A stretch of DNA of 12,906 nucleotides, from IMG/VR virus record IMGVR_UViG_2541047938_000002; one strand, 5' to 3'. The translations under genes were made by a program, and so were the position numbers. The first letter of the stretch is position 1, and each line of letters opens with the position of its first letter. A model generated the notes under the pieces. The model was not told where the DNA came from. It did no database searches and saw nothing but the letters and a program-made list of their open reading frames with translations. This DNA is from a virus (Duplodnaviria > Heunggongvirae > Uroviricota > Caudoviricetes). Shown piece by piece: positions 1 through 12,906 of this stretch.

Positions 1-1053
1 TTACGGGGTAATGCCAACCGCTGCCGCCACTTTGTCGCCACTTGGCAGCGTTGCCAGAGGATTGAAACGGAGCGCCGTTTCCAGATGATCCGGTGCCAGA
101 TGTGCGTAACGCATAGTCATTTTTATATCGTGGTGTCCGAGAATTTTTTGTAAGGCCAGAATGTTTCCACCCGACATCATGAAGTGCGCCGCAAACGTAT
201 GGCGCAGAACGTGTGTGAGTTGACCGCGAGGGAGCACGATAGACGTTTTTTCCATCACGGATAAAAATTGAAAATAGCAGTCTGTGAAGAAATTGAACCC
301 ATCAAGCGCCATGATCTCTTCGTAAAGCTCTTTACTGATAGGGATGCTTCTGTTTTTCTTCCCCTTCGTTCTTACAAAGGTAATTCGGTATTTGGTCACC
401 TGTGAACGAGTAAGATTTACGGCTTCTCGCCAGCGTGCGCCTGTGCTTAAGCATATCTTAACTACCAGTGCCAGAATTGGGTCCTGACGTTTGCAATCAG
501 CCAGTAATTCAACAATCTGCTCATGGGTAAGCCATGCCATCTCTTTTTCTGCGATGGTGAATTTTCGCATGTTCTCCAGTGGGTTCGGATACGACCATTC
601 GCCCAGGCGGGATAGTTCGCTAAAAACACTACTTAGATAGCTTTGCTCCAGGTTAATGGTGACCGGGCTTGCTCCTTTCTTCCATTTCTCGCTGAAGTAG
701 ATCTCACCTGTCAGGCGTTTATCTCGATAGTGGGCAAACATTTTAGAGGTTAGATCAGTTGCAAGGGGATTGCCCAGAGCGTCAACCATCAGCAGCAATT
801 TGTCATAGACATGCTGCCCAGCAGTCAGTGATTTACCATGTAGTTTGAACCATAGCTCAACCACGTCTTTCAGTGTTCGACGATCCACTGATTCACCTAG
901 CCAGGGCTTTGCTTCGGTTTCTTCCATCGTGTGACGCTCAAAAGCCAGTGCTTCGCCTTTGGTGGCGAATTGTTTACGCACACGACGCCCACTACGTCCG
1001 GCGGGGTAACATTCGCAAAGCCATTTTCCTGTGGTGAGTTTTCGTACAGCCAT
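1..1053 (-). CDS. int: Tyrosine integrase, P2/186 family (350 aa)
   Basis: Track ORF 1..1131(-). Best start is ATG 1053-1051, preceded by GGAGGG (1067-1062); the upstream 26 codons of the track ORF have no support. Tyrosine-recombinase signatures are present (GARWREA, LRHTFAAHF, MTMRYAHL) and the N-terminus MAVRKLTTGKW resembles P2 Int. The stop codon is bases 3-1, so the CDS ends at the window edge. Confidence 0.9.
   Translation of the reverse strand: MAVRKLTTGKWLCECYPAGRSGRRVRKQFATKGEALAFERHTMEETEAKPWLGESVDRRTLKDVVELWFKLHGKSLTAGQHVYDKLLLMVDALGNPLATDLTSKMFAHYRDKRLTGEIYFSEKWKKGASPVTINLEQSYLSSVFSELSRLGEWSYPNPLENMRKFTIAEKEMAWLTHEQIVELLADCKRQDPILALVVKICLSTGARWREAVNLTRSQVTKYRITFVRTKGKKNRSIPISKELYEEIMALDGFNFFTDCYFQFLSVMEKTSIVLPRGQLTHVLRHTFAAHFMMSGGNILALQKILGHHDIKMTMRYAHLAPDHLETALRFNPLATLPSGDKVAAAVGITP
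19..40. repeat. Candidate attL core (left copy of direct repeat CGCTGCCGCCAYTTTGTCGCCA)
   Basis: 22-bp stretch inside the 3' end of int, identical at 21/22 positions to 10052-10073 immediately after the ogr stop (C at 30 versus T at 10063). The positions match the P2 ogr-attP-int topology. Confidence 0.55.
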
Positions 1054-1241: not shown

Positions 1242-1433
1242 TTATCGTGAGTTTTTAGTACAGATTTTTTTGGATTTACTAATAGTTCCATCATTGCAAA
1301 CGAATTTGCCATCAGAGGTACAGTGAGAAACACCTCCCTTTTTCCCTGAGCAGGGATAATTTCTAGCATAGGTAGCTAGTGGGTTTAATAACAAAGAACA
1401 TGACAAAACCACAAAAAATACCTTACCAAGCAT
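1242..1433 (-). CDS. Small secreted, cysteine-containing basic protein (63 aa), hypothetical; possible lysogenic-conversion moron
   Basis: ATG 1433-1431 with SD GGGAGG 5 nt upstream, starting 18 nt after the cI stop. N-terminal signal-peptide-like segment [23 protein letters not shown]; predicted mature part about 40 aa with 4 Cys and many Lys. AT-rich by eye. Confidence 0.55.
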
Positions 1434-1448
1434 AATTTCCTCCCGGTA

Positions 1449-2018
1449 CTATTTAACATACTTGACTGTTAAACTTATAATTTTACCAATTATTTCAATG
1501 TCTTCTATCTTACATTCAAAGGCTCTGTTTCCACCCTCGACGAAGATTCTTCCACCGGGTAAACGAGTAATGTCACGGATCGTTATTTCGCCATCAATAC
1601 TTATTACCCATTTACCATCACGTATATCATCAAATTCCTTATCACAAATAAATTCAGAATTATTATCTGTGATTACAAAAAGATTCTTGAATGCCGACGG
1701 TAGAAATTCTCTATCGAAAATATAAAAACCGTCTTCACACAAGGCCCCATCAGATAATACATATTTAGCAACTTCCATAGTATTTGTATTACCTGAAGTT
1801 TGCTTTGAACCATGCCCGGTTGTGAGCCAATTAAGCGAGGTGCCTGTTTCAAGGGCGCACTGGATTACCCATTCTGCTGGGAATGAGTCACGCATGTAGC
1901 GTGTGGCGAGTGTACTTTTAGAGATTCCTAAATGATCGCACAACGCCTGTCGAGTCTTGAATCCATAAGCTTCTACCATGCGCTCTATGGCGCCTCGTCC
2001 GCCTTTCTCCAAATTCAT
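1449..2018 (-). CDS. cI: CI immunity repressor, phage 186 type (189 aa)
   Basis: Track ORF 1449..2024(-); preferred start ATG 2018-2016 with GGAG 5 nt upstream. N-terminal HTH-like region (GFKTRQALCDHLGISKSTLATRYMR) and overall resemblance to 186 CI. Divergent from the apl-cII operon, as in 186. Confidence 0.85.
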   Translation of the reverse strand: MNLEKGGRGAIERMVEAYGFKTRQALCDHLGISKSTLATRYMRDSFPAEWVIQCALETGTSLNWLTTGHGSKQTSGNTNTMEVAKYVLSDGALCEDGFYIFDREFLPSAFKNLFVITDNNSEFICDKEFDDIRDGKWVISIDGEITIRDITRLPGGRIFVEGGNRAFECKIEDIEIIGKIISLTVKYVK

Positions 2019-2029
2019 GGTCACTCCAA

Positions 2030-2083
2030 GTGAACTTTTATCTTGACGATTTCACCGTGCGATCGTATGTTTATGGTGTTCAC
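2030..2083 (+). promoter_or_regulatory. Candidate early rightward promoter (pR-like) flanked by an inverted repeat, possible CI operator half-sites
   Basis: -35 TTGACG (2043-2048), 17-bp spacer, -10 TATGTT (2066-2071) upstream of apl. GTGAAC (2030-2035) and GTTCAC (2078-2083) form an inverted repeat bracketing the promoter. Operator assignment is inference. Confidence 0.35.
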
Positions 2084-2143
2084 AAAATACAAACGATCCG
2101 TATTCGTCCTGATTAATCATCATTAAACGAGGAATGTTGCATC

Positions 2144-2365
2144 ATGAGACCTAACATTTCAATCACTCTTACCACGCCTCATGTGACTATTGAACGCTAT
2201 AGCGAGCTGACAGGGCTATCCATCGATACCATCAATGACATGTTGGCTGATGGACGCCTTATCCGTCACCGTCTGCGCAAAGATAAAAAACGCGAAAAAG
2301 TGATGATCAACATAGCAGCAATGACCGTTGATGCGCTTTCAGAATGCAATCTAAACCTTAATTAG
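2144..2365 (+). CDS. apl: Apl/Cox-family excisionase and transcriptional regulator (73 aa)
   Basis: First gene of the rightward operon, divergent from cI. HTH-like segment [25 protein letters not shown]; GAGG about 11 nt upstream of the ATG. Assigned by position and size. Confidence 0.6.
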
Positions 2366-2397
2366 TTCGATTCTGAAATACATCAGAGGCATTGACC

Positions 2398-2907
2398 ATG
2401 TTTGATTACCAAGTTTCCAAACATCCACATTTTGATGAAGCCTGTCGTGCATTTGCACTGCGCCACAATCTGGTGCAACTGGCAGAACGTGCAGGCATGA
2501 ATGTGCAGATTCTGCGGAACAAGCTGAACCCAGCTCAGCCTCATTTATTAACCGCACCAGAAATCTGGCTGCTTACCGATCTGACTGAAGATTCAACGCT
2601 GGTAGATGGTTTTCTGGCACAGATTCATTGTCTGCCATGTGTACCGATTAATGAGGTGGCAAAAGAGAAACTGCCACATTACGTCATGAGTGCAACCGCA
2701 GAGATCGGGCGTGTTGCTGCAGGTGCGGTGTCTGGCGATGTAAAAACCTGTGCCGGTCGTCGTGATGCTATCAGCAGCATTAACTCTGTAACACGACTGA
2801 TGGCGCTGGCGGCTGTTTCATTGCAGGCCCGTTTACAGGCTAATCCTGCGATGGCGAGTGCAGTTGATACCGTGACTGGCCTCGGTGCTTCATTTGGTTT
2901 GCTGTGA
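2398..2907 (+). CDS. cII: CII lysogeny-establishment activator, 186 type (169 aa)
   Basis: Track ORF 2392..2907; ATG 2398 with AGAGG 8 nt upstream. [19 protein letters not shown]... closely resembles 186 CII as I recall it. Confidence 0.85.
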
Positions 2908-2914
2908 GGTGCTT

Positions 2915-3115
2915 ATGCTGACGAAAGAACCATCATTTGCATCGCTGCTGGTTAAACAAAGCCCGGCAATGCATTACGGTCACGGCTGGATCATGGGGGA
3001 GGATGGTAAACGCTGGCATCCGTGCCGTTCACAAGATGAATTGCTGGCAGAACTATCTACGAAAAAACGGGGGAACAAATGGCTATTGAAGGCACTGCGG
3101 CGACTGTTCCATTAA
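2915..3115 (+). CDS. Hypothetical small early protein (66 aa)
   Basis: ATG 2915 with GAGG 5 nt upstream, overlapping the cII stop. Sits where 186 carries small early genes; no family recognised from sequence. Confidence 0.45.
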   Translation: MLTKEPSFASLLVKQSPAMHYGHGWIMGEDGKRWHPCRSQDELLAELSTKKRGNKWLLKALRRLFH

Positions 3116-3420
3116 GCCCCGGTGAACGCCTGAATGGACTTAATCACATTGCGGAGTTAAGGGCGAAAGTTTTTGGCCTGAATATTGAGTCAGAGCTTGA
3201 GCGGTTTATTAAAGATATGCGTGATTCACGGGATATTAATAGCGAACAAAATAAACGGGCACTGGCTGCCATATTCTTTATGGCAAAAATTCCAGCTGAA
3301 CGTCATAGCATCAGCATTAATGAGCTGACCACTGACGAAAAGCGGGAGTTGATTAAAGCAATGAATCATTTTCGTGCAGTGGTGAGCTTATTTCCCAGAC
3401 GGCTAACCATGCCGAATTAA
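3079..3420 (+). CDS. Hypothetical early protein (113 aa)
   Basis: ATG 3079 with GGGGGA SD; overlaps the preceding ORF by 37 nt in another frame. No family recognised. Confidence 0.5.
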   Translation: MAIEGTAATVPLSPGERLNGLNHIAELRAKVFGLNIESELERFIKDMRDSRDINSEQNKRALAAIFFMAKIPAERHSISINELTTDEKRELIKAMNHFRAVVSLFPRRLTMPN

Positions 3421-3487
3421 CCAACTAATGAAATTAATGGCGTAAACCCGCCGGGCATCCCTTTATCTAAATTCAGGAGAATTGATT

Positions 3488-3721
3488 ATGCGTAATATTG
3501 AAACCCTCTCGACCAAAACCGGACCGGATGACGCAGGGCTTAATATTTTACTGACAGAGGCTCGTCTGGAAGAACGCCGGGCAAGGGCTGAAGCAATGGC
3601 AGCTCGCCTTGATAGCCTGGCGTGTCATATCACATCCCGCCAGCTAACCCACGTCGAAGCGGCAGAACTGCTTCGTGTGACTGCTGAAGCAATCCAGAAC
3701 GAAGCGCAGGAGATCCACTAA
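3488..3721 (+). CDS. Hypothetical early protein (77 aa)
   Basis: ATG 3488 with AGGAGA 7 nt upstream (the track begins at TTG 3482). Its stop overlaps the next start (TAATG). Confidence 0.55.
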   Translation: MRNIETLSTKTGPDDAGLNILLTEARLEERRARAEAMAARLDSLACHITSRQLTHVEAAELLRVTAEAIQNEAQEIH

Positions 3722-3948
3722 TGGCTGATGCAATGGATCTCGTACAGCAGCGCGTTGAAGAAGAACGCCAACGCCATATCCGTGCTGCCCGTGCCAAAAC
3801 GCCGGGCGTGTCCCGCGTGCTTTGCATTGAGTGTGAAGCGCCAATTCCGCCAGCACGCCGCCGTGCCATTCCGGGTGTGCAGCTTTGCATTACCTGTCAG
3901 GAAATCGCAGAGCTGAAAGGCAAACATTACAACGGAGGTGCTGTATGA
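3721..3948 (+). CDS. TraR/DksA-family C4 zinc-finger protein (75 aa)
   Basis: C-x2-C-x17-C-x2-C motif (CIECEAPIPPARRRAIPGVQLCITC); start and stop coupled to neighbouring genes. Common in P2-family early operons. Confidence 0.75.
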   Translation: MADAMDLVQQRVEEERQRHIRAARAKTPGVSRVLCIECEAPIPPARRRAIPGVQLCITCQEIAELKGKHYNGGAV

Positions 3949-4802
3949 GCACCATCCTGAAATGGGCGGGAAATAAAACTGCCATAATGTCCGAACTGAA
4001 AAAACATCTTCCTGCTGGCCCGCGACTGGTTGAACCTTTCGCGGGTTCCTGTGCTGTGATGATGGAGACGGATTATCCCAGCTATCTGGTTGCGGATATT
4101 AATCCTGATTTAATCAACCTCTATAAAAAGGTTGCCGCTGATTGTGAATCGTTTATATCTCGCGCCAGAGTTTTATTTGAGAACGCAAACAGGGAGGTGG
4201 CTTATTACAACATAAGGCAGGAGTTTAATTACTCAACTGAAATTACTGATTTCATGAAAGCGGTATATTTCCTGTATCTCAATCGTCACGGTTACCGTGG
4301 TTTATGTCGCTATAACAAGAGCGGGCATTTCAACATTCCCTACGGTAATTATAAAAATCCGTATTTCCCTGAAAAAGAAATTCGCGCATTTGCAGAAAAG
4401 GCCCAGCGAGCAACGTTTATCTGCGCCAGCTTTGATGAAACGCTGGCGATGTTGAAGGCGGGGGATGTGGTGTATTGCGATCCGCCGTATGACGGTACGT
4501 TTTCCGGCTATCACACTGACGGCTTCACTGAAGATGACCAGTATCACCTGGCATCTGTTCTTGAACATCGGTCATCAGAAGGACATCCGGTCATTGTTTC
4601 TAACAGTGACACATCCCTGATCCGTTCGCTGTATCGCAATTTTACTCACCACTACATCAAGGCAAAACGCAGCATCGGTGTGGCAGCTGGCGAGGGTAAA
4701 TCAGCAACAGAAATCATTGCTGTTTCCGGGCCGCGCTGCTGGGTGGGATTTGATTATTCGCGTGGCGTGGATAGTTCTGCCGTGTACGGAGTACGTGCAT
4801 GA
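3945..4802 (+). CDS. dam: DNA adenine methyltransferase, Dam family (285 aa)
   Basis: Track ORF starts at 3885; preferred ATG 3945 ([11 protein letters not shown]) with GGAGG 6 nt upstream. Has the SAM-binding LKWAGNK motif and the catalytic DPPY motif; strong resemblance to E. coli Dam. Confidence 0.9.
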
Positions 4803-6223
4803 GTCATGCCGATATGAACAACTGCTGCGGCTTTAACGAAGCTGCCGCATCGTTCTCATGGAACAGCTCGAAAAAGGCCATTAACCCTTATCTGGACCCG
4901 GTGGAAGTTGCGCCGGTTTCTACGCTTTCAAACCTGATCACTCTGTACGCTGCCGATAACGAGCAGGAACAGCTGCGCCGTGAGGCGCTGAGTGATCAGG
5001 TCTGGGAGCGTTATTTCTTTAATGAATCCCGTGATCCTGTCCAGCGCGAAATGGAACAGGATAAGCTCATTAGTCGGGCAAAGCTGGCGCATGAGCAGCA
5101 GCGTTTTAATCCGGATATGGTCATTCTGGCGGACGTCAACGCCCAGCCTTCCCATATCAGCAAGCCGCTGATGCAACGTATTGAATACTTCAGCAGCCTG
5201 GGCAGGCCAAAGGCTTATTCCCGCTATTTACGTGAGACGATTAAGCCATGTCTGGAACGACTGGAGCATGTACGCGACAGTCAGCTATCTGCATCTTTTC
5301 GCTTTATGGCAAGCCATGAAGGGCTGGACGGCCTGCTGATCCTGCCTGAAATGAGTCAGGATCAGGTGAAACGCCTGTCCACCCTGGTAGCTGCGCATAT
5401 GAGTATGTGCCTTGATGCCGCTTGTGGCGATTTGTATGCCACCGATGACGTTAAGCCAGAAGAAATCCGCAATACATGGGAAAGGGTGGCAGCGGAAACC
5501 CTGCGTCTGGATGTCATCCCGCCTGCGTTTGAGCAACTCCGTCGGAAAAGAAACCGCCGTAAACCCGTGCCCTATGAACTCATTCCGGGTTCGCTGGCGC
5601 GTATGTTGTGCGCCGACTGGTGGTATCGGAAATTATGGAAGATGCGTTGCGAATGGCGGGAAGAGCAGTTGCGTGCTGTCTGCCTTGTCAGCAAAAAAGC
5701 ATCTCCCTATGTCAGCTATGAAGCCGTGTTGCATAAACGTGAGCAGCGCCGTAAGTCGCTGGAGTTTTTCCGTTCTCATGAACTGGTGAACGAAGACGGC
5801 GACACGCTAGACATGGAGGATGTGGTAAACGCCAGCAGCAGCAACCCTGCGCATCGCCGCAATGAGATGATGGCCTGTGTTAAAGGTCTGGAGCTTATCG
5901 CGGAAATGCGCGGTGACTGCGCCGTTTTCTACACCATCACCTGTCCGTCACGTTTCCATTCCACGCTAAATAACGGCAGGCCCAACCCGACCTGGACAAA
6001 TGCGACGGTAAGACAAAGCAGCGATTATCTGGTCGGTATGTTTGCTGCATTTCGTAAGGCGATGCACAAAGCCGGGTTGCGCTGGTATGGCGTGCGGGTG
6101 TCAGTGTGGTGTTCATGGCACAAACCTACAGCCTTGAATGAAGGCTTTCCCCGCCTGCGGTTTGTGTGGTTGTCGGTACAAATACCGCGCATTGTTTCAC
6201 TGCCCCCATCACCGCAACCATAA
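4799..6223 (+). pseudogene. A: Replication initiation endonuclease A (P2 gpA / 186 A family), apparently truncated with a non-homologous tail
   Basis: ATG 4799 overlaps the dam stop (ATGA), GGAG upstream. Resembles the N-terminal ~430 aa of P2-family A (…ITCPSRFH…RWYGVRV). After about 6100 the frame runs 41 unrelated codons to a stop at 6223, and the HUH region I expect next (…EPHHDGT.HWH…) is absent. Confidence 0.65.
6105..6180 (+). promoter_or_regulatory. Late-promoter region with two TGT-N12-ACA (Ogr/Delta-type) activator boxes upstream of O
   Basis: TGT(6105-6107)-N12-ACA(6120-6122) and TGT(6163-6165)-N12-ACA(6178-6180). The second box is centred about 88 bp upstream of the O start codon, consistent with a -55 activator site for a start site near 6226. 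Confidence 0.45.
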
Positions 6224-6258
6224 GGCTCCAGTAAGTTTTTTCTAACGGAGCACGGCTC

Positions 6259-7086
6259 ATGACAGTGAAAGCAAAGCGTTTTCGCATCGGGGTGGAAGGT
6301 GCCACCACCGACGGACGCGAAATCCAGCGTGAATGGCTGGAACAGATGGCAGCCAGCTACAACCCGGCGGTGTATACCGCGCTGATTAACCTTGAGCACA
6401 TCAAGTCTTATCTGCCGGACAGCACCTTTAACCGCTACGGCAAGGTGACGGCGCTGTTTGCTGAAGAAATCACGGAAGGTCCGCTGGCAGGCAAGATGGC
6501 GCTGTATGCCGACGTTGAGCCAACGGAGTCCCTGGTGGAACTGGTGAAAAAAGGCCAGAAATTATTCACCTCTATGGAAGTCAGCCCGAAGTTCGCTGAT
6601 ACGGGCAAAGCCTACCTGGTCGGCCTGGCTGCTACTGATGACCCTGCCAGTCTGGGTACGGAAATGCTGACATTCAGCGCCAGTGCAGCCCATAACCCGC
6701 TGGCAAACCGCAAGCAGAATCCTGCCAATCTCTTTACCGCTGCAGAGGAAACGGTGATCGAACTGGAAGAAATCCAGGACGACAAACCGTCCCTGTTTGC
6801 CCGCGTCACGGCGCTGTTTACCAAAAAAGAGCAGTCCGATGACGCCCGGTTCTCTGATGTGCATAAGGCCGTGGAGCTGGTCGCCACTGAGCAGCAGAAC
6901 CTGAGTGCACGCACCGAAAAATCCCTGTCTGAGCAGGAAGAACGCCTGTCTGAGCTGGAGACTGCCCTGCAGGCACAGCAAACCGCCTTTAACGAACTGG
7001 TGGACAAGCTGAGTCATGAAGACAGTCGCCAGGACTACCGCCAGCGTGCAACAGGCGGTACCTGCATTTTCATAAATACTTTTTAG
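6259..7086 (+). CDS. O: Capsid scaffold protein gpO (275 aa), C-terminal ~9 residues replaced at a deletion junction
   Basis: ATG 6259 with GGAG 8 nt upstream. FRIGVEG…DGR…INLEH…SMEV.P.FA.TGK.YLVGLAATDDPASLGTE… resembles P2 gpO. Similarity is lost after …ATGG (about 7059) and the frame ends TCIFINTF. Confidence 0.8.
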   Translation: MTVKAKRFRIGVEGATTDGREIQREWLEQMAASYNPAVYTALINLEHIKSYLPDSTFNRYGKVTALFAEEITEGPLAGKMALYADVEPTESLVELVKKGQKLFTSMEVSPKFADTGKAYLVGLAATDDPASLGTEMLTFSASAAHNPLANRKQNPANLFTAAEETVIELEEIQDDKPSLFARVTALFTKKEQSDDARFSDVHKAVELVATEQQNLSARTEKSLSEQEERLSELETALQAQQTAFNELVDKLSHEDSRQDYRQRATGGTCIFINTF

Positions 7087-7295
7087 CTCATCAGCGTAGA
7101 ACGCATTTTCTTTTGCAGAATAAAACATATTAATCACCATCCAATCGCGAAAACTCTAAAGCCACCGTAGCCAGCACATGTAATTTGAGTTTTTGTCATA
7201 CCAGTGTAATACGTTCTACCAACAGCCAAATTATATGCAGTTGTAGAACTCAAATCAGCAGCCCCAGTTGATACATCACTAAATAACGGAATCAT
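7060..7295 (-). pseudogene. Remnant of a tail-fibre gene 3' end plus the 5' end of a tail-fibre assembly (Tfa) gene, inverted relative to the other late genes
   Basis: Minus-strand ORF 7295..7134 (…AGYGGFRVFAIGW*) whose TGA overlaps ATG 7140 of a second reading frame, MVINMFYSAKENAFYADELKSIYENAG, in the ATGGTGA arrangement typical of fibre/tfa pairs. That N-terminus matches the conserved start of Tfa proteins as I recall it. The frame becomes antisense O after about 26 codons. Confidence 0.5.
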
Positions 7296-8163
7296 GCACT
7301 CATTTGGGAATGCAATAGGGAAACCCATCACCGCATTTCTCGGTGGCGTGGTGGAAGGATTCAAAGCGGCGGCAGGTCCCATCAGTGCTGCATTCGAACC
7401 ACTTAAGCCTGTGTTTCAGTGGATTGGCGACAAAGTACAGGCGCTGTGGGGCTGGTTTACTGATCTGCTGACGCCCGTTAAGTCGACCTCTGCCGAACTG
7501 CAGAGTGCAGCGGCAATGGGGCGACGATTCGGGGAGGCACTGGCGGAAGGGCTGAATATGGTCATGCATCCGCTGGACTCCCTGAAATCCGGCGTTTCCT
7601 GGTTGCTGGAGAAGCTCGGCATTGTCAGTAAAGAGGCCGCAAAGGCAAAACTGCCGGAAAGCGTGACGCGTCAGCAACCTGCGACGGTGAATGCAGACGG
7701 TAAAGTGATGATGCCATTGGGTGGTTTTCCATCATGGGGATATGGCTTTGCGGGGATGTATGACAGCGGCGGGTATATCCCGCGCGGGCAGTTTGGCATC
7801 GTCGGTGAAAACGGGCCGGAAATTGTTAACGGCCCGGCAAATGTGACCAGCCGGAGAAATACCGCTGCACTGGCTGCCGTTGTTGCCGGAATGATGGGCG
7901 TTGCTGCCGCGCCTGCAGAGCTTCCACCGTTGCACCCTTTGGCACTTCCCGCGAAAGGCGGCGAAGCGATGGTGAGTCGTGCAGCCACTGTGCCGCCCGT
8001 TCAACGGATTGAGGCACCGATGCAGATCATCATTCAGACGCAGCCAGGACAAAGTGCGCAGGATATTGCGCGGGAGGTGGCCCGCCAGCTTGATGAACGT
8101 GAACGCAGGCTGAAAGCAAAAGCCAGGAGTAACTACAGCGATCAGGGGGGATACGACGCATGA
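7294..8163 (+). pseudogene. T: Tail tape-measure protein (gpT family), C-terminal ~289 aa only
   Basis: The frame opens at ATG 7294 exactly at the junction with the inverted fibre fragment. Contains GIVGENGPE and Gly/Ala-rich segments typical of P2-family tape-measure C-termini; these proteins are about 800 aa. Stop overlaps the U start (ATGA). Confidence 0.7.
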
Positions 8164-8645: not shown

Positions 8646-9742
8646 ATTTCAGCTCTGAACTGCTTAACAAAGGCAACAAAACTCCCGCATTCAGCATCAG
8701 TATTGAGGGCAGGGATATCACCACTGTGCTGGATAACCGCCTGATGAGTTTGACGCTGACGGATAACCGGGGCTTTGAAGCGGACCAGCTTGATCTGGAG
8801 CTGGATGACGCTGACGGAAAAATCGTGCTGCCGCGCCGTGGTGCGGTCATTACGCTGGCGCTGGGCTGGAAGGGGCAGCCGCTTTTCCCTAAAGGGGCAT
8901 TCACAGTGGACGAGATTGAACACACTGGCGCACCGGACCGCCTGACTATCCGGGCGCGAAGTGCTGATTTTCGGGAAACGCTGAATACCCGCCGTGAAAA
9001 ATCGTGGCATAAGACCACCGTCGGGGAAGTGGTGAAGGAAATAGCCGCGCGGCACAAGCTGAAGATGGCACTGGGTAAAGACCTGTCGGATAAGCCCGTG
9101 GAGCATATAGACCAGACTAATGAGAGTGACGGCAGTTTTCTGATGCGGCTGGCGAGACAGTACGGTGCCATCGCGTCGGTGAAAAATGGCAATCTGTTAT
9201 TCATCCGGCAGGGGCAGGGCAAAAGCGCCACTGGTAAACCTCTGCCAGTGATCACTATCACACGTAAGGACGGCGACAGTCACCGCTTTACCCTGGCGGA
9301 TCGCGGAGCTTACACGGGTGTAATTGCCAGCTGGTTGCATACCCGCGAACCCGCGAAGAAAGAAAGCACCACGGTGAAGCGTAAGCGCAGGACTAAGAAG
9401 CAGAAGAAAGAGCCGGAAGCGAAGCAGGGCGATTACCTGGTGGGGACGGATGAAAACGTGCTGGTACTTAATCGCACCTATGCTAATCGGAGTAACGCCG
9501 AACGGGCAGCGAAAATGCAGTGGGAACGCCTGCAACGCGGTGTTGCGTCATTCTCGCTACAACTGGCGGAAGGTCGGGCGGATCTCTACACGGAAATGCC
9601 TGTGAAGGTCAGCGGCTTTAAACAGCCGATAGATGATGCGGAATGGACCATTACCACCCTGACACATACCGTCAGCCCGGATAACGGTTTTACGACCAGT
9701 ATGGAGCTTGAAGTGAGGATTGATGATTTCGAAATGGAATGA
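8642..9742 (+). CDS. D: Tail protein gpD / late control protein D (366 aa)
   Basis: GTG 8642 with GGTGGGAGGG SD. Position immediately upstream of ogr and resemblance to P2 gpD. Confidence 0.8.
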   Translation: MNFSSELLNKGNKTPAFSISIEGRDITTVLDNRLMSLTLTDNRGFEADQLDLELDDADGKIVLPRRGAVITLALGWKGQPLFPKGAFTVDEIEHTGAPDRLTIRARSADFRETLNTRREKSWHKTTVGEVVKEIAARHKLKMALGKDLSDKPVEHIDQTNESDGSFLMRLARQYGAIASVKNGNLLFIRQGQGKSATGKPLPVITITRKDGDSHRFTLADRGAYTGVIASWLHTREPAKKESTTVKRKRRTKKQKKEPEAKQGDYLVGTDENVLVLNRTYANRSNAERAAKMQWERLQRGVASFSLQLAEGRADLYTEMPVKVSGFKQPIDDAEWTITTLTHTVSPDNGFTTSMELEVRIDDFEME

Positions 9743-9832
9743 TTCTTCGCAATGGAGAACTTTTAAGTTTGCAAAATGGAATAATACGGTATCATTGTTG
9801 TGAATTTAGCAAAAATGGGGAGAACTCGAAAA

Positions 9833-10051
9833 ATGATGATTTGCCCACTGTGTGGAAGTGCCGCCCATACTCGCAGCAGTTTTCAGGTATCTTCATTGAC
9901 CAAAGAGCGTTACAACCAGTGCCAGAACATTAACTGCAGCCATACTTTTGTTACCCATGAAACTTTTGTTCGTTCGATTGCAACGCCAAAAGAGTCAAAT
10001 CCGGTTCAGCCGCATCCAATGAAATCAGGACAGGTGGCGCTCTCTCTTTGA
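9833..10051 (+). CDS. ogr: Ogr/Delta-family zinc-finger late transcription activator (72 aa)
   Basis: Track ORF 9800..10051; preferred ATG 9833 (MMICPLCGSAAH…) giving 72 aa, as in P2 Ogr. Zinc-finger motif C-x2-C-x22-C-x4-C; GGGGAGA about 10 nt upstream. Confidence 0.9.
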   Translation: MMICPLCGSAAHTRSSFQVSSLTKERYNQCQNINCSHTFVTHETFVRSIATPKESNPVQPHPMKSGQVALSL

Positions 10052-10073
10052 CGCTGCCGCCATTTTGTCGCCA
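10052..10073. repeat. Candidate attR core (right copy of the direct repeat)
   Basis: CGCTGCCGCCATTTTGTCGCCA begins at the base after the ogr stop codon and matches 19-40 at 21/22 positions. Confidence 0.55.
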
Positions 10074-10127
10074 TCGTTAAAAAACAGTGTTTCTAACATC
10101 ATGATTTTAAACAGCTTAAATTTCAGG

Positions 10128-10174
10128 CAACAAAAAACCCATCAACCTTGAACCGAAATGGCGGGGTTGATGGG
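10128..10174 (-). terminator. Rho-independent terminator downstream of ybjL (host side of attR)
   Basis: 10-bp GC-rich stem (10138-10147 pairs with 10165-10174), 17-nt loop, then TTTTTTGTTG on the minus strand (plus A-run 10132-10137); 113 nt after the ybjL stop. Confidence 0.55.
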
Positions 10175-10286: not shown

Positions 10287-11972
10287 TTATCCTAATCCTG
10301 GCCATACCATGACGATGATTGTCCCTGCCAGCGTCAGCAGGACGTTGGCGATTGCATAGGTGCCCGCATAGCCCAGCGCCGGGATGTTACTGCGAGCTGT
10401 ATCACTGATGATCTCCATTGCCGGCGCGCAGGTACGTGCGCCCATCATTGCGCCGAACAACAGCGCGCGGTTCATTCGCAATACATAAGCACCGAACAAG
10501 AAACAGATAACCACGGGCACCAGACTGACAATCAATCCGGCAATCAACATCTGACCGCCAATCGCGCCCAGGCCGTTATTAATACCGCTACCGGCGCTCA
10601 GACCAACGCCTGCCATAAACACCATCAAGCCGAACTCTTTCACCATGCTTAATGCACCCTGCGGAATGTAACCGAAGGTCGGGTGGTTAGCACGCATAAA
10701 GCCCAGCATAATTCCGGCGAATAACAACCCGGCAGCGTTCCCCATGCCGAAACTGAATGTGCTGAACTGGAAGGTGATCATCCCGATCATCAGCCCAATA
10801 ACAAAGAAGGCGCAGAATGCCAGCAGGTCAGTGACCTGGCTGTGAATCGAGATAAAGCCGATGCGATCGGCGATGGTTTTTACGCGGCGGGCATCGCCGC
10901 TGACTTGTAAAACGTCACCTTTGTTAAGCACGACGTTGTCATCTATCGGCATCTCAATCTGGCTACGAATGACGCGGTTAAGGAAGCAACCGTGATCGGT
11001 CAACTTCAGTTGTGCGAGACGTTTACCTACAGCGTTATGGTTTTTAACGACCACTTCTTCAGTGACGATACGCATGTCGAGAAGGTCACGATCGAAAACT
11101 TCTTTACCGTTACGGAAGCTGGGATCGAGTCGGGCATGGGCGTCGGGATAGCCTACCAACGCTATTTCATCGCCCATTTGTAGCACGGCATCACCGTCTG
11201 GATTTGCCAGAATCCCGTTACGTCGAATACGTTCAATGTAGCAGCCGGTTTGTCGATAAATACCCAGTTCACGCAGATTTTTGCCGTCGGTCCAGGCCAC
11301 CAGTTCCGGGCCGACGCGATAGGCGCGGATCACCGGTAAATAAACCTTACGGTTGGCATCAGTGTCCAGGCCACGTTCGCGGGCGATTTGCTGGGCGCTG
11401 GTCTGTAAGTCCTGATGCTGCAATTTCGGCAAGTAACGCGCACCAACAATCAAACTCACCAGACCGATTAAATAGGTTAAGGCATACCCGAGGCTCAGAT
11501 TATCCAGTGCCAGTGAGAGCTGCCTGCTTTCCATGCCGGAATGACGCAGTGTATCGCCAGCACCGACCAGAACCGGTGTCGACGTCATAGAGCCTGCTAA
11601 CATACCGGCCGTCAGGCCAATATCCCAGCCAAACAGCTTACCTAACCCTAAGGCGATCACCAGCGCACTGCCAACCATCACCAGTGCTAACATTAGGTAA
11701 TTTTTCCCATCGCGAAAAAAAATGGAAAAAAAGTTCGGTCCGGCTTCGACCCCGACGCAGAAAATAAACAGCATAAAGCCAAGATTAAGCGCATCGGTGT
11801 TAATGCTGAAATGTTGTTGGCCTAATAACAGCGATACGACTAAAACGCCAATGGAATTACCCAGTTGGATCGAACCAAGTCGTAACTTTCCGAGACATAG
11901 CCCAAGCGCGAGGACCACAAATAATAACAGAATGTAATTCCCATTTAACAATTCGGCGACGTTTATATTCAC
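10287..11972 (-). CDS. ybjL: Putative AAE-family transporter YbjL (561 aa)
   Basis: Full-length ORF whose sequence ([24 protein letters not shown]…) I recognise as E. coli YbjL; GTG start at 11972; neighbours ybjM and grxA as in E. coli. Confidence 0.9.
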
Positions 11973-12241
11973 GGAGGCTAACTTCTTGTTTACTAGTAAG
12001 CTGTTGAAAGAAATGGTAATTTACGATAATGTTTTTTACCAGAATTCAGGGCGCAGATTCATTCAGCGCACCTAAACGATAGTAAAGTAACAATATATTT
12101 TACTAGTGTAATCACATTAGGTATCAACGGCTATATGAATTGCGTTGGCCTATATTAGCATGGAATGCGAAGCGGCTTTATCTTACTGAACGCCACACTG
12201 GCGAAAAATGTGTTCGATAGACGCAGTGTCAGGAGGAACGA

Positions 12242-12619
12242 GTGAAACATAAACAACGTTGGGCGGGGGCAATCTGCTGTTTTGTCCTCTTCATTGTGGT
12301 GTGCCTTTTTCTGGCGACGCACATGAAAGGCGCTTTTCGGGCTGCCGGGCATCCTGAAATCGGCTTGCTATTTTTCATTCTTCCTGGAGCAGTCGCCAGC
12401 TTCTTTTCACAGCGTAGAGAAGTCCTGAAACCTCTGTTTGGCGCAATGCTGGCGGCACCCTGTTCGATGCTCATTATGCGGCTGTTTTTTTCACCGACGC
12501 GCTCATTCTGGCAAGAGCTGGCATGGTTACTAAGCGCGGTGTTCTGGTGTGCGCTGGGGGCACTGTGTTTCTTATTTATCAGTAGTTTGTTTAAACCACA
12601 GCACAGAAAAAATCAGTAA
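12242..12619 (+). CDS. ybjM: Inner-membrane protein YbjM (125 aa)
   Basis: GTG 12242 with AGGAGGA SD; hydrophobic multi-pass sequence; divergent from ybjL and convergent with grxA, as in E. coli. Confidence 0.85.
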   Translation: MKHKQRWAGAICCFVLFIVVCLFLATHMKGAFRAAGHPEIGLLFFILPGAVASFFSQRREVLKPLFGAMLAAPCSMLIMRLFFSPTRSFWQELAWLLSAVFWCALGALCFLFISSLFKPQHRKNQ

Positions 12620-12639
12620 AGCCCTCAACGCGAGGGCTT
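12619..12639 (-). terminator. Hairpin between convergent ybjM and grxA, probable grxA terminator
   Basis: Stem AAGCCCTC/GAGGGCTT with loop AACGC. On the minus strand a T6 run follows 6 nt after the stem; no U-tract on the plus strand. Confidence 0.4.
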
Positions 12640-12648
12640 GTCAGACGA

Positions 12649-12906
12649 TCAGGCGTCCAGATTTTCTTTCACCCATGCAGCAAAATCGGTATAGCCGCCG
12701 ATATGTTGCTGATCGACAAAAATCTGCGGCACGGTTTCTACGGGTTTACCTGCCTTTTGTTGTAGATCTTCTTTAGTGATCCCTTCCGCACGAATATCTA
12801 CATACTGATACTGAAAATCATCGCGTTCATTGCTCAATTTCTCAGCCAGATCTTTTGCACGCACACAGTAAGGGCAACCCGAACGACCAAAAATAACGGT
12901 TTGCAT
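12649..12906 (-). CDS. grxA: Glutaredoxin 1 (85 aa)
   Basis: MQTVIFGRSGCPYCVRAKDL… with the CPYC active site; recognised as E. coli GrxA. ATG at 12906-12904 at the window edge. Confidence 0.95.
   Translation of the reverse strand: MQTVIFGRSGCPYCVRAKDLAEKLSNERDDFQYQYVDIRAEGITKEDLQQKAGKPVETVPQIFVDQQHIGGYTDFAAWVKENLDA

Follow-up and report, generated by a model that had tools for sequence, protein, structure and literature searches.

The window, by which we mean the whole 12,906-nucleotide stretch of DNA analysed here, was identified from its ORF listing and from Pfam scans as a P2/186-type prophage of E. coli, located in the interval between rcdA (alias ybjK) and ybjL. The recognised features are collected in Table 1. 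The remnant extends for approximately 10.1 kb from the int stop codon at window position 1 to the end of attR at 10142, compared with approximately 33.4 kb from attL to attR in Klebsiella phage 4LV2017. The attL copy was located about 75-90 bases to the left of the window, and the corresponding 14-nt direct repeat was found in a Logan contig which carries the same sequence. The order of genes from cI through apl, cII, fil, DUF5347, DUF2732, the traR-like gene and dam to A is common to the window and its P2-like relatives.

Table 1. Features of the prophage remnant in the window (positions count from the first base of the window).
Feature	Position	Strand	Evidence and remarks
Integrase, P2-type	1-1053	-	PF00589
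YdcA-like small gene	1242-1433	-	63 aa; Pfam YdcA (PF27300)
CI repressor, 186-type	1449-2018	-	
Early genes, in order: apl/cox-like, cII, fil, DUF5347, DUF2732, TraR/DksA-like		+	
Dam-type N6-adenine methylase	3945-4802	+	PF02086, E=3e-77; gene call in Logan contig
Replication endonuclease gene A, first 434 codons	4799-6100	+	PF05840; alignment with full-length A proteins
Deletion junction, 8-bp microhomology TGCGGGTG	6093-6100		A codons 432-434 and P codons 6-8 in intact relatives
Terminase ATPase gene P, first 8 codons (MNTTLTPA)	6093-6116	-	tblastn of strain 1223 terminase residues 1-8, 100% identity at 6116-6093 (E=2.2, meaningless alone and counted only together with DNA synteny)
Foreign codons (40) and TAA stop (6221-6223)	6101-6223	+	100% identical to P/O side of strain 1223
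Capsid scaffold/protease gene O	6259-7060 (ORF runs to 7086 in foreign sequence)	+	PF05929, profile 2-261/268
Tail-fibre C-terminus / tail-fibre-assembly N-terminus fragment	7061-7318	-	258 bases, 38% GC
Tape-measure gene T, C-terminal remnant	7319-8163	+	Aligns to phage 4LV2017 30617-33540; T there is 28384-31461
U, D, ogr	after the tape-measure remnant; ogr 9833-10051		
attR core repeat	10124-10142	+	Matches annotated attR of phage 4LV2017
Host genes ybjL, ybjM, grxA	beyond attR		

The integrase frame, when called mechanically, runs from 1 to 1131 on the minus strand and encodes 376 aa from an upstream ATG, with its stop codon forming the window edge; gene calls use internal starts which give 350 aa in the matching Logan contig and 326-343 aa in relatives. 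The product of the small minus-strand gene flanked by integrase and cI has a hydrophobic, signal-like N-terminus, and given the low GC content of this stretch (35-36%) the gene may be a moron or cargo gene. The stop codon of dam and the start codon of A overlap (ATGA, window 4799-4802). The annotation of phage 186 notes that A seems to be translated only if the preceding ORF is translated to its end, and by analogy A may here be translationally coupled to dam.

The open reading frame at 4799-6223 encodes 474 residues, of which 434 correspond to replication initiator A while the remaining 40 are foreign and are followed by the stop codon. Residues 188-434 matched the Phage_GPA profile (PF05840) with E=8.6e-87 and 291.6 bits, the cut-off being 31.4. 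PF05840 is classed among the HUH endonuclease families (PMC5714925). The match covered profile positions 1-243 of 321, whereas the A proteins of P2, of 186 and of the prophage of E. coli strain 1223 each covered 1-321, and the frame therefore falls short of the whole catalytic-domain profile. When 50,697 phage records were searched by tblastn, residues 1-435 were found at 97-98% identity and no similarity extended further. Overall the first 434 codons were 96-98% identical to full-length A proteins. The closest of these is the 804-aa A of Klebsiella phage 4LV2017 (Elveevirus) and of E. coli prophages (97-98% over residues 1-434), while P2 A (761 aa) and 186 A (694 aa) share 26-27% overall identity with the frame. 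Members of the same 90% cluster which were named and not marked partial were all 797-806 aa long. When a full-length A protein was used to search the sequences of solved structures, no match was obtained.

The last A-like stretch is RWYGVRV at residues 428-434. A preliminary description of this DNA had placed the end of A similarity at this heptapeptide, near 6100, just before the catalytic region, and the Pfam, tblastn, DNA and protein comparisons all bear this out: DNA alignments to phage 4LV2017 and strain 1223 end at 6100, and protein alignment with P2 A and 186 A sets the breakpoint after the GxRV motif, at residue 434. The same description had counted 41 unrelated codons beyond this point. 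The foreign tail is indeed present, but it comprises 40 codons (435-474) plus the stop.

Alignment of the full-length A proteins makes clear what the frame retains and what is missing from it. Rep motif 1, a strand of the FxTxT type, is kept as FYTITCPS at residues 377-384 (approximately 5927-5950) and aligns with FITLTAPS of P2 and FYTLTAPS of 186. In P2 A, 186 A and two 804-aa relatives the HUH motif, (A/V)EPHHDGTxHWHxLxF, directly follows GxRV, with HWH at 399-401 in P2 A and at 444-446 in the 804-aa relatives, so that the cut lies nine residues before the first HUH histidine. About 50 residues past the HUH motif the full-length proteins carry YIAKYISKNIDG, with the tyrosine pair of YIAKYISK at Y450/Y454 in P2 A and at 498/502 in the 804-aa relatives. 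Tyrosines 450 and 454 of P2 are reportedly those of the active site. Alignment and tblastn found no HUH motif in the frame or in any frame near the locus, and alignment, motif search and tblastn found no YIAKYISK in the frame or the window; the earlier statement that both motifs are missing was thus correct, as both are present in the four full-length proteins and neither is present here. A tblastn search of the window with the missing C-terminal 370 residues gave no match (best E=0.9). Compared with the 804-aa A, the window frame lacks residues 435-804, which hold the HUH motif, the tyrosines, the C-terminal half and the ori nick site, and unlike that protein it ends in an unrelated 40-residue tail.

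To define the breakpoint at the DNA level the window was compared by blastn with phage 4LV2017 and strain 1223. The aligned block on the A side (3079-6100) and that on the P/O side (6093-7060) overlap. In a three-way comparison the A-side parent reads ...GGCG TGCGGGTG GCTGAGCCGCATCATGAC... and the P-side parent reads ...GATC TGCGGGTG TCAGTGTGGTGTTCATGGC..., and across the octamer the window is a perfect chimera, A to the left and P to the right, which is the signature of a microhomology-mediated deletion. Codon 434 of A is joined to codon 8 of the opposite-strand terminase gene P and then to the P-O intergenic region, and the 40-codon tail is the antisense of the P 5' end and P-O intergenic DNA read in the A frame. 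No similarity of this tail to any A protein was detected by tblastn or protein alignment. The junction is a defined deletion and not a chance pattern.

We consider it very probable (roughly 95%) that the frame is a pseudogene, comprising the 5' 54% of a P2/186-type initiator A and created by a single illegitimate-recombination deletion in the integrated prophage. The deletion occurred between the two copies of TGCGGGTG in A codons 432-434 and P codons 6-8, and the interval concerned measures about 6-7.5 kb in relatives. Lost from A were the HUH motif, the catalytic tyrosines and the C-terminal half, in which the ori nick site lies; lost beyond it were the Tum/DinI-like antirepressor, cargo genes, portal gene Q and almost the whole of P. 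The A frame now runs on through 40 codons of P/O intergenic sequence before it reaches a stop. In agreement with this, tblastn with the relatives' small ORF, DinI/Tum-like protein, portal and terminase gave no match in the window.

We considered whether an error of assembly or sequencing could have created the junction in a genome whose real A gene is intact. The exact 474-aa protein is EQZ03224.1 ('hypothetical protein G967_00840'), from a 3.39-Mb contig of E. coli UMEA 3329-1, and this is the only named strain in which it is recorded, besides matching read-set assemblies. P2-like prophages are also repeat-like, being found at a median of 3 places per E. coli genome, and can confuse short-read assemblers. 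Against this, the junction is present both in the 3.39-Mb NCBI contig and in the 52-kb Logan contig (SRR958752, 4 samples), which was separately assembled and is identical to the window at 12,906 of 12,906 bases, though the two assemblies may share the same or related read sets and the independent confirmation is to that extent incomplete. A repeat of 8 bp is well below the k-mer length of assemblers and cannot collapse a k-mer assembly, and the element carries two further deletion junctions, which show that the prophage has truly decayed. An artefact is in our judgement very unlikely.

How widely the truncated allele is distributed was examined with a 121-base query spanning the junction. Not one of 5,426 complete E. 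coli genomes covered at least 80% of it, and among the matches listed only one side of the junction was covered, each match starting at query base 54 (window 6093). The truncated A allele thus looks strain- or clone-specific. The 96-98% identity to full-length A and the intact neighbouring genes, together with the lack of the junction in other genomes, suggest that the deletion was a recent, strain-specific event and not a truncation that was retained and selected.

These observations bear on a second alternative, that truncated A has been kept for a new function, either in interference with P2-like phages or through a regulatory or DNA-binding role of its N-terminal half. All 474 codons are intact, the frame still overlaps the stop codon of dam, and both the repressor and the promoter region of its early operon are undamaged. 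A recent deletion would, however, leave an intact frame in any case; an allele which occurs as a singleton gives no sign of selective retention, and the C-terminal tail is fortuitous intergenic read-through. Moreover, the element has an intact cI but no longer the Tum-like antirepressor, and by analogy with phage 186 biology its early operon is expected to stay repressed even under SOS. Retention for a new function is accordingly regarded as very improbable. One form it might take is that the 434 residues and their fortuitous tail, made upon derepression, act on the cis-acting A of superinfecting P2-like phages in a dominant-negative manner or as a decoy. We give this very little credence; if true, a decoy A would provide the host with a replication-level exclusion function.

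The long, uninterrupted frame and the very strong Pfam match might instead suggest that the 474-aa protein is complete and belongs to a Rep family of naturally shorter proteins with catalytic motifs of their own, the finding which the preliminary description had named as refuting its reading. This alternative is itself refuted by a profile match which stops at 243 of 321, the absence of any HUH or YxxxY motif from the frame or nearby frames, cluster mates of 797-806 aa and a tail made of P/O intergenic DNA in a foreign frame.

The truncation separates Rep motif 1 from the lost motif 2 and so divides the nuclease core, and the fold is predicted not to form. With motifs 2 and 3 missing, the truncated product would be unable to nick or join DNA. 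In P2 and 186 the annotated nick sites lie inside the A gene itself, at codon 620 and approximately codon 611, respectively. The A gene of strain 1223 contains an ori-homologous stretch, GCGCC...AATAACTG (also GCGCC...GGCAATAACTG), at approximately codons 670-680, which was located through protein alignment, the ori DNA being too diverged from that of P2; the position of ori in this phage lineage is thus a putative one, based on resemblance to the sites annotated in P2 and 186. The window contained no exact copy of the strain 1223 stretch, and when 200 bases surrounding the P2 nick site were compared by BLAST with the window and relatives, only chance 9-14-mers were returned. The remnant would therefore be unable to start rolling-circle replication, with no nick site left for A. 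The preliminary description had already reasoned that, if A is cut off in this way, the element could not carry out rolling-circle replication of its own, and this appears right but understated, because the same deletion took the ori-like site, the Tum-like antirepressor, the portal and the terminase.

Since the element keeps int, apl and the att repeats on both sides, the remnant might still excise, yet it would be unable to replicate or be packaged. A search for the P2 cos 19-mer with up to 3 mismatches gave no match. When up to 5 mismatches were allowed, the cos-like 19-mer GGCGTGGCGGGGATACGAG (5 mismatches to P2 cos) was found at locus position 8855 of strain 1223 and at 4520 of NCTC9041, where it sits after the DinI/Tum-like gene, within the interval deleted from the window; no such 19-mer was found in the window or in phage 4LV2017. 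Since the sole cos-like 19-mer of the relatives lies within the deleted interval, packaging by a helper is tentatively considered unlikely.

The A gene is not the only gene to have been damaged. Compared with intact relatives the element lacks the 3' part of A, Q, P, N, M, L, lysis genes, baseplate, sheath and tube genes, and most of T. Gene O is without its last 32 bases, its alignment to phage 4LV2017 15692-16659 stopping at window 7060, and T resumes at 7319, approximately 845 bases ahead of its end. The 258 bases in between were 91.8% identical to the boundary of the tail-fibre and tail-fibre-assembly genes in 9 E. coli P2-like prophages, and were identified only via the annotations of such prophages: against the phage collection neither blastn nor tblastn of the translated fragments gave a match, and the translated fragments had no Pfam match. 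The segment includes the first approximately 27 codons of the tail-fibre-assembly gene and is inverted relative to T and the neighbouring late genes. Probably it is what remains of an inverted alternate tail-fibre cassette such as that found in strain Ecol_224 (locus 4846-5679). Two further deletions, leading from the end of O to the tail-fibre cassette and from there to T, account for the loss of capsid, lysis and most tail genes. What is left is a cryptic remnant with int, cI, apl, cII, dam, O, U, D, ogr and both att sites. Truncated A is one symptom of a thoroughly defective remnant and no special feature. The plus-strand ORF at 7294-8163 (289 aa) is chimeric, with its ATG and first 8 codons in the tail-fibre fragment followed by approximately 281 T codons; no Pfam domain was found in it.

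Remnants of closely related prophages occupy the same rcdA(ybjK)/ybjL integration site in strain 1223 (NZ_CP023383) and NCTC9041 (NZ_LR134296). Like the window, both carry the early region from int to A (95.7% identity) and the T-U-D-ogr right end, and the capsid and tail block is deleted in all three. Unlike the window, both retain an intact 804-aa A, the Tum-like gene, cargo, portal (Q) and terminase (P), and the A|P junction is unique to the window. The O-to-T joins also differ. In strain 1223 the join corresponds to window coordinates 6336|7453 (strain locus 13181-13183), while in NCTC9041 window position 7037 is joined to a point 73 bases further into T (strain locus 9945-10018). A shared T-side breakpoint in the window and NCTC9041, with BLAST blocks of both starting at 7319, was considered and rejected: NCTC9041 keeps 73 more T bases, and the two deletions are therefore independent. 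Closely related P2-like prophages have thus left at least three remnants at this att site, which were deleted differently and do not share their O-to-T breakpoints, and this looks like recurrent and independent decay rather than one inherited deletion. Altogether 55 complete E. coli genomes covered at least 80% of the window, and the best 25 matches all had the 18.1-kb span of strain 1223.

The object is a pseudogene in a cryptic P2-like prophage, which is of a well-known kind, and the process is ordinary prophage decay; only the exact junction and the better annotation are new. The label of the GenBank entry EQZ03224.1 should be changed to that of a truncated replication endonuclease pseudogene. 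The locus illustrates cleanly the microhomology-mediated, stepwise decay of a P2-like prophage and is of little importance beyond annotation, although the presence of several independent remnants at rcdA/ybjL could be of use in studies of prophage domestication rates; no new question is raised.

The cargo slot between A/Tum and the portal gene, which is wholly deleted in the window, differs in each relative. In phage 4LV2017 (locus 10905-12888) it holds a retron St85 effector and a gene annotated as 'polymerase', in strain 1223 (locus 8960-10111) a TIGR02391 protein, and in NCTC9041 (locus 1955-6208) a KAP P-loop NTPase and DprA. This variable slot may hold defence genes.
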